Shown here one piece after another: positions 1 through 6,574 of a DNA stretch of 31,933 nt; the first letter of the stretch is position 1, and each line of letters opens with the position of its first letter. A program made the translations under genes and the position numbers. Location of the stretch: positions 1 to 31,933 of IMG/VR virus record IMGVR_UViG_3300028591_000112; one strand, 5' to 3'. The DNA is from a virus (Duplodnaviria; Heunggongvirae; Uroviricota; Caudoviricetes). The notes beneath the pieces were generated by a model. The model was not told the origin of the DNA and made no database searches. It saw only the letters and a program-made list of their open reading frames with translations.

Positions 1-123
1 TGTAATAAATTTATTTTTTCTATTTGTTCTATAATCATATTTTATTTTTATGATTTCAATATTTTTATTTTTTGCTAAAAATAAATTTAAATCACATTGA
101 AAATTAAATTCTACTTTTTCCAT
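1..123 (-). CDS. Small early hypothetical protein, 3' end runs off the window (MEKVEFNFQCDLNLFLAKNKNIEIIKIKYDY...)
   Basis: ATG at 123 with upstream AAGGAG and its own TTGACT/TATACT promoter; frame open to position 1. Confidence 0.7.
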   Translation of the reverse strand, partial: MEKVEFNFQCDLNLFLAKNKNIEIIKIKYDYRTNRKNKFIT

Positions 124-227
124 AATTGTCAACTCTCAACTCCTTACATTATAAGTATATCAAATTATAGATAATAAGTCAATACTTTTTAGGAATTTTT
201 TTTATTTTTTTAGTTTACACTTTTGAA

Positions 228-302
228 TGTAAAATAATTGTAAAGCGGCCGGTTATGCAAAAAACGGCTGGCATGCGAATTTATGAGCGCCCGCCAGCCG
301 CC
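228..302. repeat. Intergenic element U1: TGTAAA-N5-TGTAAA plus GC hairpin CGGCTGGC-N20-GCCAGCCG
   Basis: Direct repeats 228-233 and 239-244; inverted repeat 265-272 / 293-300; T-tract follows on the minus strand. Confidence 0.85.
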
Positions 303-305
303 AAA

Positions 306-516
306 TAAAAAAAACTCAATACTTAGGATATTGAGTTCCATGCCTTTTGCTATCGTTAAAGTCCTACAAAAAGTTGTATAACACGCTATTTCTACGCCTT
401 AAATAGTAAAGCTTACGCCTGATTTCATCCGCTAGATAGTGATAGGGAAGTCCTAAGTCCCTAACTTAAAACCTATTGTGAAATAAATTTTAAGTTAAGG
501 ACTAAGTCCTTATTAC
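306..516 (-). ncRNA. Candidate structured ncRNA, copy 1 (about 200 nt)
   Basis: Own sigmaA promoter (546-551) but no RBS/ORF; long 5' hairpin GTCCTTAACTTAAAA/TTTTAAGTTAGGGAC; ends in terminator 313-337 whose loop TCCTAAG is complementary to CTTAGGA at 451-457; architecture shared with 2718-2988. Confidence 0.7.
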
Positions 517-533
517 ATTATAATTATATCATT

Positions 534-962
534 TTAATATTTATTTGTCAATAGTTTTTCTATAATTTTATTAAATATTTCATTATCTTTTGGAATAGAC
601 CCACAAGAATAAATTGTTAAATTATCTTTTTTTTCTCCTAATACAAGATATTCAATTAACATTTCTTCTTTTGAAATTTGATTAAAAGATAAAACTTTTA
701 TTTCTTGATAAATATAATCATGACAATGAATATCGGCATAATAACATTTTTCAACACTAACATGCTTAAATGATTTAATAATACAAGGGTTATCACTAGC
801 AATTAAATCAAATTCTTGACTATGAATTTTTATTTTTTTAAATTTACTTTCTTGATTACTTCTTACAATAGGTTTATAATCATTAATTTCATTATTTACA
901 TTACTATAACTTTTTGCACTACTATTACTATTACTATGACTTACACTAATACTATTAAACAT
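534..962 (-). CDS. Early hypothetical protein, 142 aa, Ser/Asn-rich N-terminus
   Basis: ORF with own promoter and AAGAGG RBS. Confidence 0.8.
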   Translation of the reverse strand: MFNSISVSHSNSNSSAKSYSNVNNEINDYKPIVRSNQESKFKKIKIHSQEFDLIASDNPCIIKSFKHVSVEKCYYADIHCHDYIYQEIKVLSFNQISKEEMLIEYLVLGEKKDNLTIYSCGSIPKDNEIFNKIIEKLLTNKY

Positions 963-1001
963 TTTAATTACCTCTTTTCTTATTACATTATTATTATATC
1001 A

Positions 1002-1202
1002 TTAAAACTTTCTATTGTCAATAAGTTTTTTTATATCTTCAAAAGTTTTTTTGTAATCACTATCCCAATTAAAACATAATGCCGATATTTCCTCACATTG
1101 AATAGTCCAGTCCCAATTATCAAAACAAGTTAATGTAAAAGTATAATTAGGAAAAACACAATGTAAATAATTAAAAATTAATTCCAATTCTTTAATATTC
1201 AT
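1002..1202 (-). CDS. Early hypothetical protein, 66 aa
   Basis: ORF with own promoter and AAGGAG RBS. Confidence 0.8.
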   Translation of the reverse strand: MNIKELELIFNYLHCVFPNYTFTLTCFDNWDWTIQCEEISALCFNWDSDYKKTFEDIKKLIDNRKF

Positions 1203-1243
1203 TTTATCTTTCTCCTTACATTATTATTATATCAAATTAGGTT

Positions 1244-1435
1244 TTATTTGTCAATATTTTTTTTCAAATAATTGTTATAAAAAACATTTTTACTAACTAT
1301 TTCACTATTCCAAATATAAATATTATTTCCTTTTGATACTTTTGCAACAAAACAATTTTCTTGTATTTCCATTTCAAACTCAACTTTAATTCCTGCACTT
1401 TTAAATAGATTTTTTATATTCTCTTTATTATACAT
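1244..1435 (-). CDS. Early hypothetical protein, 63 aa
   Basis: ORF with own promoter and AAGAGG RBS. Confidence 0.8.
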   Translation of the reverse strand: MYNKENIKNLFKSAGIKVEFEMEIQENCFVAKVSKGNNIYIWNSEIVSKNVFYNNYLKKNIDK

Positions 1436-1530
1436 TTTGATTACCTCTTTTCTTTACATTATAATTATCTCATACTATAAGAAAAAAGTCAAGTATTTTT
1501 TGGGAATTTTTTAAATTTTTTTAAAAACAA

Positions 1531-1613
1531 TGCGGCAAGTGTAAAAAAGTGTAAAGTTTATTTATAACAAAAATGCGGCTGGCGTAAGGTAAAATGGTCG
1601 TGCGCCAGCCGCC
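1531..1613. repeat. Intergenic element U2: tandem TGTAAA plus hairpin GCGGCTGGCG-N18-CGCCAGCCGC
   Basis: TGTAAA 1540-1545 and 1550-1555; inverted repeat 1575-1584 / 1603-1612; preceded on the minus strand by small terminator GGCGGCAACGCC-TTTTT. Confidence 0.85.
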
Positions 1614-1634
1614 AAATAAAAAAGGCGTTGCCGC

Positions 1635-2021
1635 CTATTCTCCATAAATTTTAAAATATTCTTTTTCACTTAATATTTTTTCATCTTTTAAAAATTCACA
1701 AAAATCATTTAAAAGTTCTAATCTTATTGGGTTACTTGCAAAAATTGTTAAGCCTACATTATAACTAGTTTCTTTTCCAATAAAATCACAATCTATACCT
1801 AATATTTGTAATTCCTTTTGTCTTGAAGATAAATCATAATCTTTAAATTTTTCTTCATACATTGTTACACAAATATGAGGATTTCCTTCATTAATTTTTT
1901 TATTAATTTTTTCTATTAAATCATAATAAAAATTTCTTTGTCCTATTTGCTTATTTAAATAAGAATTATATCTTATTTTATTTTTAGTATTTTCTAATTT
2001 TTCAATATTAATTTTTTCCAT
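1635..2021 (-). CDS. Early hypothetical protein, about 128 aa
   Basis: ORF with own promoter; ATG at 2021 preferred over GTG at 2030. Confidence 0.8.
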   Translation of the reverse strand: MEKINIEKLENTKNKIRYNSYLNKQIGQRNFYYDLIEKINKKINEGNPHICVTMYEEKFKDYDLSSRQKELQILGIDCDFIGKETSYNVGLTIFASNPIRLELLNDFCEFLKDEKILSEKEYFKIYGE

Positions 2022-2087
2022 TTTTATCACTTTCCTTATTACATTATAAGTATATCATTATTTAATAATTATGTCAAGAGCAAAATA

Positions 2088-2537
2088 TTAAAAGTTTAAT
2101 ATTTTGCTCATTTTTTCAACATAATCAACATTTCTTAAATAGAAATCTATACCCCATTTAGTTGCTTCGTATTCTCCTTTAATAGTAAAATAACGAACAT
2201 CAAATTCCCAATCTTCTTCAGGAGTTGTGTCAGGTTTTAATTCCATTTCTTTTTGTAGTAAAATGTATTCTACATACATTTCCGCTTGTCCTATTGGAGT
2301 GCTAGTTTTATAATGTCCTATTTCATGTAGTAAGTGAGCAAACCACCAATTAATATTAGCACATTGCGGAAACTCTTGTTGATACCATTTAGTATAAGAT
2401 TTTTCTTCTTTTGTTCCTATACTAATTAGATTATTTTTTCTAAACCACATATTTTTTTTAAATGATACCTTTAAATTACTATCAATGCTTTTTACTATTG
2501 TTTTAATTAAGATTTTTTCTTTTCTTGTATATTCCAT
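2088..2537 (-). CDS. Putative Zn metallopeptidase (HExxH; ImmA/IrrE-like), 149 aa
   Basis: Motif FAHLLHEIGHY plus downstream E-x-E-A; own promoter and RBS. Confidence 0.7.
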   Translation of the reverse strand: MEYTRKEKILIKTIVKSIDSNLKVSFKKNMWFRKNNLISIGTKEEKSYTKWYQQEFPQCANINWWFAHLLHEIGHYKTSTPIGQAEMYVEYILLQKEMELKPDTTPEEDWEFDVRYFTIKGEYEATKWGIDFYLRNVDYVEKMSKILNF

Positions 2538-2640
2538 AATACAACCTCTTTCCTATTACAATTATATTATACTATTATTTAATAAAAAAGTCAATAGATT
2601 TTAGGAAAAAATTAAAAAAATAATAGAGTAAATATTAAAA

Positions 2641-2714
2641 TGTAAAAAAGTGTAAAGTAGTTAAATAAATAAAAAACGTGTGGTTTGCAAAGGGACTGCC
2701 GCAAACCACACGCC
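2641..2714. repeat. Intergenic element U3: tandem TGTAAA plus hairpin CGTGTGGTTTGC-N12-GCAAACCACACG
   Basis: TGTAAA 2641-2646 and 2651-2656; perfect 12-bp inverted repeat 2677-2688 / 2701-2712. Confidence 0.85.
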
Positions 2715-2717
2715 AAT

Positions 2718-2988
2718 TAAAAAGAGTTGACACTTGGTTTGTCAACTTCTTTCCTATCTCTATTTAACTAGTATTTTTTAACGAGATAGCCCTATTTTTC
2801 CCCTTTAAACGCTCAAGAAATAAGGAAAACTCAATATACTTCTTTAAGGTAAAAGTTCCCCGAGTTTCAAGATTATTCACCAGTTATGTTTCTTTACTCT
2901 GAACTCAACATAAAGGATAGAGATTACCAAGTTCCCTATCAAAAGTCTATAAGCAATTTTATAAACTTTTGATAGGGACAAACCCTTA
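2718..2988 (-). ncRNA. Candidate structured ncRNA, copy 2 (about 265 nt), downstream of a 50-aa basic ORF
   Basis: Long hairpin TCCCTATCAAAAGT/ACTTTTGATAGGGA, then CTTGGT (2926-2931) complementary to terminator loop AACCAAG (2733-2739); same layout as 306-516. Confidence 0.7.
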
Positions 2989-3138
2989 AGCATATTTTAA
3001 TGCTCTTGGGTTTGCATTACGACCATGTAATTTTTTATTAGTCTTACCCTTTCTTTTTAGATTTGCTGCAGTTCTCATAAATTGAGCAGCATTTTTGTCA
3101 ACAACAATTTTGTTTGTGATAGGTTTTCTTTTTGCCAT
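2986..3138 (-). CDS. Small very basic protein, 50 aa (MAKRKPITNKIVVDKNAAQFMRTAANLKRKGKTNKKLHGRNANPRALKYA)
   Basis: Manually translated, absent from the ORF track; own promoter (3194-3199) and AAAGGAAAG RBS. Confidence 0.8.
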   Translation of the reverse strand: MAKRKPITNKIVVDKNAAQFMRTAANLKRKGKTNKKLHGRNANPRALKYA

Positions 3139-3181
3139 AAATACCACTTTCCTTTCTTTATTACATTTATATTATAGCAAA

Positions 3182-3427
3182 TTATTGAATATTTGTCAAT
3201 GCTTTTTTATAATTTTTTTCAAAATTCTTTATTAATAATATTTCACTTAACATTTTGTTAAGTTCTTCTTTTGTATGGACGCCATCAATTCTTTTTCTTA
3301 AAGTTGTAGCATAATTTAATAATTCTTCAAAAGGACAATTTTTTCCAATTATTCTTCTAATAGAATATCTTAATCTAACTGATATTTTATCACTTTCTAA
3401 ATAATTTTCTTTTAATGTTAATTTCAT
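3182..3427 (-). CDS. Early hypothetical protein, 81 aa
   Basis: ORF with own promoter and AAAGGTG RBS. Confidence 0.8.
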   Translation of the reverse strand: MKLTLKENYLESDKISVRLRYSIRRIIGKNCPFEELLNYATTLRKRIDGVHTKEELNKMLSEILLIKNFEKNYKKALTNIQ

Positions 3428-3472
3428 AATTAATCACCTTTCCTTTATTACATTATAATTATAACATAGTTA

Positions 3473-3670
3473 TTAATTATTGTCAATAGTTAAATTACAT
3501 TTTTTTAAAACTTCTTCTAAACTTTCATTATTATAAACCGGAATATTCCATTGATACCAATTACGATAACCCATAGCATGAAATTCATAAATTGTTCTTT
3601 TAAAAATATTATCATAATAAACTCGTTCTAATTCAAAAACTCTTTTTGTTTCATTATCTATTACTTTCAT
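3473..3670 (-). CDS. Early hypothetical protein, about 65 aa
   Basis: ORF with own promoter; ATG at 3670. Confidence 0.8.
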   Translation of the reverse strand: MKVIDNETKRVFELERVYYDNIFKRTIYEFHAMGYRNWYQWNIPVYNNESLEEVLKKCNLTIDNN

Positions 3671-3756
3671 TTCTATCACTTCCTTACATTATAATTATAT
3701 CATTATTAAGTTTTTTTGTCAATAAATTTTTGTATTTTTTTAAATAATTTTAGGAA

Positions 3757-3884
3757 TGTCAACTTTACATGTAAAGATCAGCTTGCCATTGGTTTTTTCC
3801 CAAAAGTATGTTTAATTAATATAATGCGGCGCGGTTCCCATATTACATCTGACCGCGGGCCGCCGCATTGTAAAGTTATGTAAA
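3757..3884. repeat. Intergenic element U4: bulged GC hairpin with TGTAAA repeats and palindrome CTTTACATGTAAAG
   Basis: Arms 3823-3835 and 3852-3869; TGTAAA 3869-3874 and 3879-3884; palindrome 3763-3776. Confidence 0.8.
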
Positions 3885-3892
3885 TAAAAGAA

Positions 3893-4117
3893 CTACTCAT
3901 TATCAAGTAGTTCATTTGCATAATCAATAATGTCTTGATTAATAAAACTTGTTAAAGTATCATTATCATAATACCAAGTCATTACTTTTTTCATAAGTTC
4001 ATTATTGATTTCAGTAGCGCCTAGTTCATAAGCAAGTAATGCGCAATAAAGTTCTATAATATCACTAGGTGCGCACTCTCTATTAAGACAATTAAGTAAG
4101 TCTTGAGCATCCCACAT
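3893..4117 (-). CDS. Small acidic hypothetical protein, 74 aa
   Basis: AAAGGAG RBS; second gene of a two-gene unit; terminator hairpin overlaps its 3' end. Confidence 0.8.
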   Translation of the reverse strand: MWDAQDLLNCLNRECAPSDIIELYCALLAYELGATEINNELMKKVMTWYYDNDTLTSFINQDIIDYANELLDNE

Positions 4118-4131
4118 AATTATACTCCTTT

Positions 4132-4323
4132 CTAATTAAAATAACCAAAACCAACAGTTGCATAGTCAGTTAAAGTAACACCAACAACACAAGCAATATT
4201 TTTGTGTGCCTTTTCATTTATTTTTTGCATAATAGCAAGAGCATGTTTTTGAAATCTTGTTTCAAAATTACCTCCAAGTCTTTTGCCATTAACAATAACA
4301 GTATAAATATAATTTTTTCTCAT
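4132..4323 (-). CDS. Early hypothetical protein, 63 aa
   Basis: ORF with own promoter and AAGAGG RBS. Confidence 0.8.
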   Translation of the reverse strand: MRKNYIYTVIVNGKRLGGNFETRFQKHALAIMQKINEKAHKNIACVVGVTLTDYATVGFGYFN

Positions 4324-4397
4324 AATAATTACCTCTTTCCTTATTACATTTATATTATATCATTTTAATATTTACTTGTCAATAGTTTTTTGAAAAA

Positions 4398-4589
4398 TTA
4401 TCTAAATAATTTTCCCCATTTATAAAGTATTTTTAGTATAACTAAATTAATAATTATAGTAGCAAATACAATTTTGTTATAAGTTGGATTTCCTAATGTA
4501 TCAAGAAATGCACCTACACTTAATGTATCAAAAATTACTATCCCAATTAATGTATTTTCTAACCAAGTTTTTAAATATCTTTTTTTCAT
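4398..4589 (-). CDS. Small two-TM membrane protein, 63 aa
   Basis: Basic N-terminus and two hydrophobic segments; resembles 5462-5674. Confidence 0.8.
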   Translation of the reverse strand: MKKRYLKTWLENTLIGIVIFDTLSVGAFLDTLGNPTYNKIVFATIIINLVILKILYKWGKLFR

Positions 4590-4693
4590 TTAAATTACCT
4601 CTTTCCTTATTACACTTATATTATATCACTATACCAAAAGCAAGTCAATAGGTTTTTGTGATTTTTTTAATATTTTTTTACATTTGACATTTA

Positions 4694-4806
4694 ATGCGGA
4701 AAAAGTGTAAAGTTAATCAACCTCCTAAAATGCGGCGCGCAAGGTAGTTTATGTCTGTCAGCGCGCCGCCGCATTTTGTCAATTAATTGTAAAGCATTGC
4801 CGCATT
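4694..4806. repeat. Intergenic element U5: bulged hairpin AAAATGCGGCGCGC-N20-GCGCGCCGCCGCATTTT with TGT(A/C)AA repeats
   Basis: Arms 4727-4740 and 4761-4777; TGTAAA 4706-4711; TGTCAA-N5-TGTAAA 4777-4793. Confidence 0.85.
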
Positions 4807-4816
4807 TAAAAAGAGA

Positions 4817-5053
4817 CTAATCTCTAGTTAAGTAGTTGTGTATGTCTCTTTCAAAGTCTAATCTACTTAATTCTCTTGTAGTCTCTCTTAAATAATAACA
4901 AGTATGATTTTCTATGAAATCTCTACCAAGAACAAGATTTTTGTCTTTATAGTCCTCGTTTTTTCTTTCTCTTGCTTCAGTAGCAATTATATCACTTGGA
5001 CCTTCAATAATCTCTCCTGATACATAATCATAAAATAGTGCACTTTTTTTCAT
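4817..5053 (-). CDS. Early hypothetical protein, 78 aa
   Basis: ORF with own promoter and RBS. Confidence 0.8.
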   Translation of the reverse strand: MKKSALFYDYVSGEIIEGPSDIIATEARERKNEDYKDKNLVLGRDFIENHTCYYLRETTRELSRLDFERDIHNYLTRD

Positions 5054-5152
5054 AACTCATTACCTCTTTCTTTATTACAATTATATTATATCAAATTTTT
5101 ATTTATTTGTCAACAACTTTTTATTATTTTTTTATTTTGAAGAATAGGATTT

Positions 5153-5410
5153 TTAGTCCCACTCTTCAAAATCAATTGAAGTAACTTTAAAATCATCATT
5201 GAAATATACACAAGTATGGTCTCCCCAATAACCACCTATGTAAATCCAATCACCTTCAAAACTATATTCTTCAGGTTGTATTTTACATTTTTCTATAAAA
5301 TCTAATATACTTTCTAATGTTTCATCTTCGCCAAAATCAAATTGAATATTTTTTTCTTTTAAAACTTTTACACACTCTTCAAAACTTAAATCTTTTAAAT
5401 AATCATACAT
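5153..5410 (-). CDS. Small highly acidic early protein, 85 aa
   Basis: ORF with own promoter; D/E-rich. Confidence 0.8.
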   Translation of the reverse strand: MYDYLKDLSFEECVKVLKEKNIQFDFGEDETLESILDFIEKCKIQPEEYSFEGDWIYIGGYWGDHTCVYFNDDFKVTSIDFEEWD

Positions 5411-5461
5411 AGTTTTTCAACTCTCTTTCTTTATTACATTATTATTATATCATTTAAATAA

Positions 5462-5674
5462 TTATTTGTCAATGTTTTTTGTATCAAAAACATTAGAATA
5501 TTTGTATAGTATTAATGTAGTTATTACCATTATACCAACATTAACTAGGAAGAAAATAAAGTATTCTTTAGTCCAATTACTTTCTATTGTTGTTGCAATT
5601 AACATAAATGCTAAACAATCAATCATAAATAAAACTTTTACTATACTTTCTTTTAAAACTAATCTTCTTTTCAT
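5462..5674 (-). CDS. Small two-TM membrane protein, 70 aa
   Basis: Basic N-terminus and two hydrophobic segments; own promoter. Confidence 0.8.
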   Translation of the reverse strand: MKRRLVLKESIVKVLFMIDCLAFMLIATTIESNWTKEYFIFFLVNVGIMVITTLILYKYSNVFDTKNIDK

Positions 5675-5829
5675 TTGAATTTCCTTCTTTCTTTATCTTA
5701 CATTTATATTATATCATTAATTGTTTTGCTAATCAATAGTTTTTGATTAATTTTTTGTTTGTTTACACATTTATTTTTAGGAGTTTTTTGTTTTAGTCCT
5801 TTTTTGCCAGTCAAGATAAAAAAGTACCG

Positions 5830-5902
5830 AAGTGTCAAATAAGTGTAAAGTCCGGACTTTTTTGGCGTGAAGCGGAAATGCCTTAATAAAGTATTGCCGC
5901 AA
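5830..5902. repeat. Degenerate intergenic element U6
   Basis: TGTCAA-N5-TGTAAA 5833-5849; GCGG/CCGC cluster; ATTGCCGCA shared with U5; hairpin weak. Confidence 0.55.
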
Positions 5903-5944
5903 ATTCTCAAGAAAAAATTATATTAATTTTTAATAATGCAAAAT

Positions 5945-5980
5945 AAAAACAACAAGCAAATTTATTATTTTGCTTGTTGT
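5945..5980 (-). terminator. Intrinsic terminator
   Basis: ACAACAAGCAAA / TTTGCTTGTTGT stem followed by a T-tract. Confidence 0.8.
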
Positions 5981-6141
5981 AAAGTTTTGATTAACTTAAT
6001 TGAATAACCAATTATAAGAACAAAATTATTATATTTATTATTTTGATTTGCAATTAGTTCATCTCTTTTTTTATCTATCTCAATATAACTTTTTGCATAA
6101 CAAATAATTTCCTTTGTAACTTTATCTTCAATGTAATACAT
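5965..6141 (-). CDS. Early hypothetical protein, 58 aa (MYYIEDKVTKEIICYAKSY...)
   Basis: Manually translated; own promoter (6197-6202) and GAGG RBS. Confidence 0.75.
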   Translation of the reverse strand: MYYIEDKVTKEIICYAKSYIEIDKKRDELIANQNNKYNNFVLIIGYSIKLIKTLQQAK

Positions 6142-6209
6142 AATTCATTACCTCTTTCCTTTATTACATTATTATTATATCATTAATTAGTCTTTTTGTC
6201 AACTAGTTT

Positions 6210-6344
6210 TTAATCAATTGGTTTAATTTCTAGATACTCTAATTTAAAACCTCTTCTCTCAAGTCTTTCTCTTTCTTCAACTGCTTGAGAATAAGTTTTA
6301 AAACTATTTAAATAACTACCTTTGTATAATAATTGATATTTCAT
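6210..6344 (-). CDS. Early hypothetical protein, 44 aa (MKYQLLYKGSYLNSFKTYSQAVEERERLERRGF...)
   Basis: Manually translated; own promoter (6398-6403) and AAGAGG RBS. Confidence 0.75.
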   Translation of the reverse strand: MKYQLLYKGSYLNSFKTYSQAVEERERLERRGFKLEYLEIKPID

Positions 6345-6574
6345 TTTAATTACCTCTTTCCTTTTCTCAATTATAGTATACCACTATTAAGGAATAATGT
6401 CAATACTTTTTTAATAATTTTTTTATTTTTTTTATCATAAAAGTTATACAAGTTTTACGATAAAATTTCATTAGTACATTTGTTCGGTTTCTTGTTTGTG
6501 TTGATACTAAAAAGAATTATAGGAATGTTTGTTCGCTATTGCAGTATAAATGTTCGATTTACAAATTCTTGACA

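Follow-up and report, generated by a model that had tools for sequence, protein, structure and literature searches.

The window analysed here covers the initial 31,933 nt of a phage record of 131,615 nt, which has direct terminal repeats (G000; IMG/VR record IMGVR_UViG_3300028591_000112). On the minus strand of its early region, the window carries two copies of a structured RNA element. These copies belong to an uncatalogued RNA family of a kind that is already known, the phage-encoded structured RNAs of unknown function. An earlier reading of the letters alone (the sequence-only reading) had reported the two elements; both are real, and a third copy was found in G000 outside the window. In total, 12 distinct copies were identified in eight phage records, and their comparison revealed covarying helices, a covarying pairing between a 5' loop and the terminator loop, a promoter and terminator context, and interiors of different types mixed within genomes. 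The reading that we favour, with a probability of roughly 0.4, is that of a stand-alone early RNA, in which a protective frame carries exchangeable interiors serving in trans as putative decoys; the host RNA-binding proteins lured in this way would most plausibly belong to defence systems.

Members of the RNA Family

The copies were collected with three kinds of query, namely sequence patterns, the neighbouring protein and two covariance models. The search of related phages with such models, which the sequence-only reading had proposed, thus extended the family to G000 (three copies), G001 (two), G047 (two), L345, L348, L362, L413 and L519. The near-duplicate records G092, L411, L491 and L564 were left out of this count, and the in-depth analysis covers 11 copies, without the late-found L519. 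The RNAs are 175–290 nt long, and one to three of them are present per carrier phage. Copies 1 and 2 fold better than all of their 200 dinucleotide shuffles (z = −4.6 each). A profile built from eight copies of other phages ranked the three G000 copies at the top in 131.6 kb (E-values, 5e-14, 8e-5 and 3e-3), a test which is not fully independent because patterns of the G000 copies helped to find the rows of the profile. Among 16 perfect-stem hairpins located at U-runs in G000, an 8-nt loop complement 60–250 nt upstream was found solely for copies 1 and 3, while the loop complements of the other 14 reach at most 6 nt.

The claim that the element matches no known RNA family has held. At the gathering threshold, Rfam 15 gave no matches in the window or in the loci with copies, and 20 further loci yielded tRNAs only; the best matches in E-value mode were microRNA models, at 27 bits against thresholds of 80–90. 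BLAST returned chance fragments or nothing when annotated phages were searched with copies 1 and 2 and plasmids with copy 3. An exact 15-mer scan of viral contigs resulted in 49 matches, none of them real, and the 120 loci obtained with a terminator-only scan, out of an estimated 340, were almost without exception due to chance. No description of this RNA family turned up in the literature searched, and a motif check of four supplementary files of PMC10690425, its alignment archives lying outside the check, was negative. By-eye likenesses to anticodon loops, T-box, the pistol ribozyme, the nexus of trans-activating CRISPR RNA, Cas12a repeats and telomere repeats were rejected, as none of these was found across the copies or in Rfam. 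One RNA run, which contained a small share of the sequence words, was examined over positions 1–1630, a range that does not include the copy 2 region; it covers this range only with short AT-rich pieces lying outside copy 1 and weighs neither way.

Several marginal candidates were met during the searches. Weak model matches are present in G005 and G013 (E-values, 0.016–0.05). Positions 3293–3382 of L377 and L378 hold a short version (27 bits), in which a P1-like hairpin and an AT-rich stretch are followed by CTTGG/CCAAG as the stem of one hairpin; it could be either a deletion product or the ancestral state. L148, L166, L168 and L172, which share a GTCCCTA...TAGGGACTTAG hairpin, were rejected as members, since three of the four were scored and none matched the models. 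These unrelated virus records contain a different hairpin-rich repeated element starting with CCGTTTGTCCCTACAC, which occurs twice in one contig in opposite orientations, has no Rfam match and may be a non-autonomous mobile element.

Conserved Frame, Loop Pairing and Interiors

Each copy begins with a 5' hairpin, P1, which is followed by the long, AU-rich hairpin P2, the short hairpin P3, an interior of 62–172 nt and finally a terminator. The P3 stem pairs TAGG with CCTA or a variant of it, and its loop begins with CUU(A/G)G. The landmarks described in the sequence-only reading were recovered, namely TAAGG at 512–508 and 2988–2984, long hairpins ending in TAGGG at 463–459 and 2938–2934, the segments that follow them (CTTAGGA at 457–451 and CTTGGTA at 2931–2925), the terminator loops complementary to these segments (TCCTAAG and AACCAAG), and the strong promoter of copy 1 (Table 1). 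In contrast, the helix which it had proposed between CTATC and GATAG is not a part of the family: its pairs reach a probability of 0.001 in copy 2 and of 0.03–0.20 in copy 1, the motif is missing at that place in the other copies, and the first CTATC belongs to P3, as its 3' strand. The ensemble of copy 2 favours a shifted closing helix, ATCTCTAT/ATAGAGAT (probability, 0.8–0.93), instead of which sequence likeness to L345 suggests a local hairpin. The copies had also been described as free of open reading frames (ORFs). This is so under genetic code 11 at a length of at least 50 aa, whereas code 4 allows a frame of 49 codons that starts with ATG, has no ribosome-binding site and overlies copy 2 (2844–2993).

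In an 11-row alignment, which was fitted to that same structure, 90.8% of the P1 and P2 positions are paired, and two-sided changes are seen in 16 of the 20 pairs (6/9 in P1 and 10/11 in P2). This level of pairing was reached by none of 500 shuffles, and slid controls did not exceed 55%. By direct count P3 has four to eight pairs, and the base of its stem alternates between T–A and G–C or G–U. If the 3' strand of P1 and the 5' strand of P3 pair with each other instead, a single long hairpin results, which is the minimum-energy fold. With the kissing strands free, the two states lie no more than 5 kcal/mol apart in 9 of the 11 copies, and the long hairpin is favoured by 11.5 kcal/mol in copy 2 and by 8.0 kcal/mol in L348. 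Two-sided changes, so frequent in P1, affect only one of the six pairs in the extension helix of the long hairpin, where a U–G pair is kept in 10 of the 11 copies; moreover, P1 is lengthened in L519 and L491, in a background nearly identical to L362. The comparison of the two helices, together with the longer P1 of L519, favours P1+P2+P3 as the putative selected fold and the long hairpin as an energetically close alternative.

The terminator loop is complementary to the P3 loop over six to eight bases in all 11 copies, with predicted duplexes of −6.1 to −10.5 kcal/mol. The fourth position of the kiss is A:U in six and G:C in five copies and always matched; the sixth is G:C in six, A:U in three, U:A in one and mismatched in one, and the first pair is lost in G001a. 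Cognate loop pairs beat permuted ones (p = 0.0008), in a permutation that ignores relatedness. As a blind control, 108 viral matches to a P3-only pattern were inspected, with full flanks for 80 loci: eight have the long hairpin, and seven of these eight a complementary terminator loop, which was found in none of the other 100. Given the covariation at two positions across 11 copies, the 5'–3' pairing stands. The conserved pseudoknot of the sequence-only reading is thereby upheld as a long-range pairing, while its geometry is more likely a loop–loop kiss between P3 and the terminator than a pseudoknot beside a long hairpin. The CUUR of the P3 loop presumably corresponds to the YUNR U-turn motif of kissing loops.

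The interiors fall into several types, and G000, G001 and G047 each mix interior types as well as both kissing codes. Type alpha unites copy 1 with G047a and L413 (local alignment z, 13.9 and 19.9) and, more weakly, with L348 (z, 6.2), and type beta unites copy 3 with G001a (z, 17). Copy 2 and L345 have in common a 13-nt word in a predicted hairpin loop that carries the palindrome ACUAGU; for G001b and L362 the resemblance to other interiors is limited to 10-nt words, and G047b shows none. A coding role was rejected in view of indels of 1–4 nt in the alpha-type alignments. The longest match to G000 outside the copies, sought as a possible antisense target in the phage's own genome, is 12 nt, which equals the shuffle level. 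The suggestion of a scaffold carrying variable cargo fits these modular interiors.

Table 1. Features of the RNA copies and their cassettes (positions refer to the window unless stated otherwise).
Feature	Position	Strand	Remark
Early promoter of copy 1, sigma-70-type, TTGACA-17-TATAAT, extended TG	523..551	-	12/12 consensus matches
Predicted transcription start of the copy 1 promoter	~516	-	
RNA copy 1, interior type alpha, directly behind promoter; promoter–terminator span without ORF	307..516	-	
Copy 1 P1, 5' hairpin TAAGGAC/GTCCTTA; 3' strand able to extend P2 instead	496..512	-	
Copy 1 P2, long AU-rich hairpin	464..495	-	
Copy 1 P3, TAGGGA/TCCCTA, loop CUUAGGACU; kissing strand 457–451	443..463	-	
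Copy 1 variable interior, ~100 nt, type alpha	342..442	-	Local alignments
Copy 1 terminator, 9-bp stem, loop UCCUAAG (328–322), U-run	307..337	-	
Second GC-rich hairpin and T-run behind copy 1, before next promoter (repeat family D11)	259..302	-	
142-aa ORF of the preceding cassette; stop codon inside copy 1 promoter	534..962	-	
Early promoter of the copy 2 cassette	3171..3199	-	12/12 matches
50-aa basic ORF; stop codon TAA identical with the first three bases of TAAGG in copy 2	2986..3138	-	
RNA copy 2, G-type kissing code, one interior module common to L345	2719..2988	-	
Copy 2 5' frame: weak P1 (one A–C mismatch), P2, P3 GATAGGGA/TCTCTATC	2916..2988	-	
Copy 2 kissing strand CUUGGU	2931–2926	-	
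Copy 2 terminator, 8-bp stem, loop AACCAAG (2739–2733), U-run	2719..2747	-	
Second GC-rich terminator-like hairpin behind copy 2, 16 pairs, T-run	2675..2714	-	
Third copy, outside the window, behind winged-helix gene	G000:C1 128,511–128,779 (L050 2012–2280)	-	

Genomic Context and Proposed Role

Eight of the 11 copies lie behind the gene of a 116–127-aa protein with a predicted C-terminal winged helix (predicted local distance difference test score, 84), the best structural matches of which, Fur, PadR and Z-alpha, all have E-values above 0.01. Two further copies follow a 50-aa basic ORF, the ORF ahead of copy 2 having its ortholog ahead of G001b, and copy 1 stands directly behind its promoter. 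The stop codon of the winged-helix or basic ORF is separated from the RNA by 0–7 nt. The 142-aa and 50-aa ORFs next to copies 1 and 2 matched no family in PHROG, Pfam and PADLOC scans. Behind the terminators of copies 1 and 2, a second hairpin and then a new promoter are found. GC-rich hairpins with T-runs, about 100 nt ahead of the next promoter, were noted at 259–302, 1570–1623 and 2671–2724 of the window and also in L050. In addition, the −35 hexamer TTGACA is paired with TGTCAA inside many terminator and interior stems of these phages.

The winged-helix gene itself is common and, among the matches listed, mostly ends in a plain terminator. The RNA lies directly behind it in only 5 of 66 matched loci, so the RNA and the winged-helix protein are not obligate partners. 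A paralog of the gene located ~0.7 kb beyond copy 3 also has a plain terminator at its end. The slot occupied by eight of the 11 RNA copies harbours a tRNA gene, within ~200 nt behind the winged-helix gene, in 4 of 60 loci. These genes, for tRNA-Lys (UUU or CUU) or tRNA-Glu, follow early winged-helix genes (L357 at 3395, L373 at 3407, L399 at 3406 and 3549, and L405 at 3361), are far from any tRNA island seen, and are possibly early counter-measures against anticodon nucleases. Since tRNA genes take the same position, their presence suggests that the place behind the winged-helix gene is a slot for RNA genes. Gene-free, hairpin-rich stretches of ~220 nt are located behind winged-helix paralogs in L350 (3363–3600) and L361 (3357–3570); they start with similar G-runs and C-runs, match neither Rfam nor the model of this family, and represent a possible second RNA family.

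According to the favoured reading, early promoters of host type would drive transcription of the RNA, on its own in the case of copy 1 and as the 3' portion of a short mRNA in the case of the other copies, and mRNA-borne copies would be trimmed back to P1 by a 5'–3' exonuclease. P1 and the terminator would shield the two ends, the CUUR loop of P3 would kiss the terminator loop and thereby compact and protect the RNA, and the exchangeable interior would be displayed to host proteins as a decoy. The decoy role is the least supported of these steps; it is suggested by the position in early cassettes, the diversity within single genomes and, by analogy, the pseudo-ToxI precedent considered below. 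A more specific form of the idea, a natural RNA chassis with a conserved self-locking frame, interchangeable structured modules and several versions per genome, appears doubtful to us, although if true it would be an RNA counterpart of an array of anti-defence proteins, in which two kissing codes would keep the versions from cross-pairing. To our knowledge, phage RNAs with an established role in countering host defence are very few. In uncultured Bacillota hosts of the gut type, a fixed frame with exchangeable interiors would provide bait for RNA-binding targets that take part in defence or in host takeover, and a compact stabilising scaffold of this type might be used for RNA engineering in Gram-positive bacteria.

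A number of points weigh against this reading. The transcript is a prediction from sequence context, and its binding partner is hypothetical. Ten of the 11 copies lie in a 3' untranslated region, a position which is equally compatible with a role in cis. For copy 1, a deletion between two TAAGGA words could have left the element behind as a remnant. Most relatives are without a detectable copy, strong model matches being present in 3 of 48 and 4 of 47 related records, but this absence is soft because many records are fragments and ~90 candidates were scored per record. A host-encoded counterpart was sought in a bacterial and archaeal genome collection with a subtype-A pattern, which would miss G-type and distant forms, and resulted in three matches, none supported by the models; the interiors likewise match no antitoxin family in Rfam. 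Finally, the A/G switch of the kissing helix may rest on no more than one or two events in evolution: two changes are required on a tree that leaves the kissing strand out, and in 25% of the bootstrap trees one change is enough.

The best-surviving alternative, possible but on balance unlikely, is that of an elaborate cis-acting 3' end which stabilises the short early mRNA ahead of it, that of the winged-helix or the basic protein, with copy 1 as an orphan. It accounts for the 10 copies placed just behind a stop codon and for the fact that the terminator of the cassette is the end of the element. It is also in line with L230, where the same gene is followed by a TTGACA/TGTCAA-stem terminator, flanks like those of G047a and no RNA, a locus which is possibly an empty site or a deletion. 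On the other hand, a plain terminator suffices for most winged-helix genes, several conserved interior types are not needed for stabilisation, and copy 1 keeps its compensated helices in a cassette without an ORF. Even as a 3' stabiliser alone, the element would be an unusual terminator, its loop being held by a covarying long-range pair.

It is rather improbable that the 5' frame is a two-state switch between P1+P2+P3 and the long hairpin, in which a terminating ribosome or a protein would shift processing or termination. The small energy difference in most copies with free kissing strands and the strong preference of copy 2 for the long hairpin agree with a switch, as do indels of L348 and L362 that appear in matching form in both the P1 strands and the strand competing with them. 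The scarcity of two-sided changes in the extension helix, its nearly constant U–G pair and the P1 lengthening of L519 and L491 oppose it. An argument for ribosome-coupled switching from the closeness of the stop codon was discarded, as a hairpin lies near the stop in nearly all winged-helix loci and the spacing is thus general. Moreover, because copies 1 and 2 are followed by a second terminator-like hairpin, read-through would gain little.

Intermolecular loop pairing, with dimers or rings as in ROOL and GOLLD, is considered still less probable than the switch. The covarying kissing loops of ROOL proved to be intermolecular in the account given in 10.1101/2024.12.08.627333, two kissing codes occur together in G000, G001 and G047, and the loop common to copy 2 and L345 is palindromic. 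However, a length of 175–290 nt is far below that of GOLLD (many over 800 nt, in the same account), the range of interior lengths suits a fixed cage poorly, and sequence alone cannot separate intra- from intermolecular pairing.

An action as DNA, be it as a hairpin-rich mobile element, a recombination cassette or a part of an origin, is very unlikely. The patchy presence, the several copies per genome and the surrounding repeated promoter cassettes would suit such an element, and template switching could maintain nested inverted repeats. Nevertheless, promoter and U-run are always co-oriented with the element, in 10 of the 11 copies the complement folds less well than the sense strand, the U–G pair is conserved, and no transposase, TnpB, IscB, Cas protein or reverse transcriptase was found by Pfam among 76 G000 proteins, all of at least 90 aa and encoded outside the window, the two longest ones not being part of this set.

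Source Phage and Comparison with Known RNAs

The genome of G000 has a G+C content of 28% and 26 tRNA genes. Its probable major capsid protein shares 52% identity with that of phage Phass-1 and 40% with that of Enterococcus phage EF1, members of a group that is the subject of PMC10607447, and from these relatives the host is inferred to be a member of Bacillota. A single minus-strand early region (127,000–131,615 and 1–6,400) is built of repeated consensus sigma-70 promoters, mostly with one small gene per promoter. The early promoter cassette occurs 12 times within 1–6400 (repeat family D1), and every cassette except that of copy 1 has a ribosome-binding site and an ORF at the corresponding place. 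The tRNA island is located at 100.7–112.2 kb, and the RNA copies at 0.3, 2.7 and 128.5 kb. A tRNA-Ser with the unusual anticodon ACT was called at G000:C1 103855–103946, and an interrupted tRNA, apparently with a CCA anticodon, contains a nuclease-family ORF (G000:C1 106277–106978). The genes gyrB, nrdD and that of DNA polymerase III alpha are interrupted by GIY-YIG-type ORFs, likely introns (G000:C1 69000–97000 and 115000–123300), and RtcB, an RNA ligase and a four-region sigma-70 factor are further encoded.

Reading through TGA raises the coding density of G000 from 0.56 to 0.80 and recovers a portal of 535 aa and a tape measure protein of 2,722 aa. TGA is read as tryptophan in middle and late genes, and the early cassette genes are without in-frame TGA, a pattern also described for early genes of recoded phages in 10.1101/2021.08.26.457843. 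The genetic codes of the relatives are mixed (code 11, TAG-recoded and TGA-recoded). That the RNA helps to switch the host to TGA as tryptophan is highly improbable: TGA read-through increases coding density in 5/5 carriers tested against 5/15 non-carriers, the early genes avoid TGA, and no UCA-anticodon tRNA pattern was found in 13 records (G000 and 12 relatives), yet the carriers are close kin, so this association may be ancestry, five TGA-recoded relatives, one of them 91% complete, are without a detectable copy, and the RNA has no tRNA-like fold.

Comparison with known systems places the RNA near several groups. As in the PeSL cassettes of T4-type phages, the region combines repeated strong sigma-70 promoters, stem-loops and small shuffled genes, but PeSLs are described in the cited account as promoter–terminator DNA cassettes (PMC2839356), while here a predicted transcribed unit of 200–290 nt lies inside such a cassette. 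The noncoding RNAs of phage K also come from a large lytic Bacillota phage, one of them from its own early promoter, and their function is unknown; no sequence likeness to them was found in the phage collection, and the excerpt of PMC9241854 at hand mentions no kissing frame. ARAGORN found no tRNA or transfer-messenger RNA fold in the window or at the copies. Phage-encoded partners of guide or template RNAs (omega RNA, retron, DRT and bridge RNA) were sought, and none was found among the 76 G000 proteins (Pfam) and 32 window ORFs (PHROGs).

The ROOL and GOLLD RNAs are closer in kind: they too are phage-encoded and structured, have no known function, and combine covarying kissing loops with a variable region. 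According to 10.1101/2024.12.08.627333, they are large and located in tRNA islands, whereas the present RNA is small, stands in early promoter cassettes and uses the terminator loop as the kissing partner; their Rfam models gave no match in the window. The AbiF RNA antitoxin RCd22 (RF03085) is likewise a small hairpin-rich RNA spanning from a SigA-type promoter to a terminator in a Bacillota phage, and it acts by protein binding (10.1101/2025.04.15.648962). In that account it is 132 nt long with two repeated motifs, in contrast to 175–290 nt with a variable interior here, and neither the abiF motif RF03085 (Rfam) nor a downstream abiF gene (PADLOC, 15 neighbours) was found.

The type III antitoxins ToxI, TenpI and CptI, and among their mimics the pseudo-ToxI of phage PhiTE, resemble the RNA in combining tertiary base-pairing with a promoter and terminator frame, pseudo-ToxI being a phage-encoded noncoding RNA (PMC3594212, PMC12283969). 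As far as these accounts go, type III antitoxins are made of tandem repeats of ~36 nt with a compact pseudoknot per repeat, whereas here one loop pair spans 120–230 nt, and no tandem near-identical repeats are present in copies 1 and 2. No toxin gene was found behind the terminator among 15 neighbouring ORFs (PADLOC) and 15 early ORFs (PHROGs), although an adjacent toxin gene is not required for a phage mimic of a type III antitoxin. Pseudo-ToxI provides a precedent for a phage RNA decoy (PMC3594212), and by analogy the present RNA may be a decoy as well, its candidate target being an RNA-binding protein of host defence; such an antitoxin mimic had been suggested in the sequence-only reading. 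Despite lacking the testable features of membership in these families, the RNA may nonetheless work like a decoy antitoxin.

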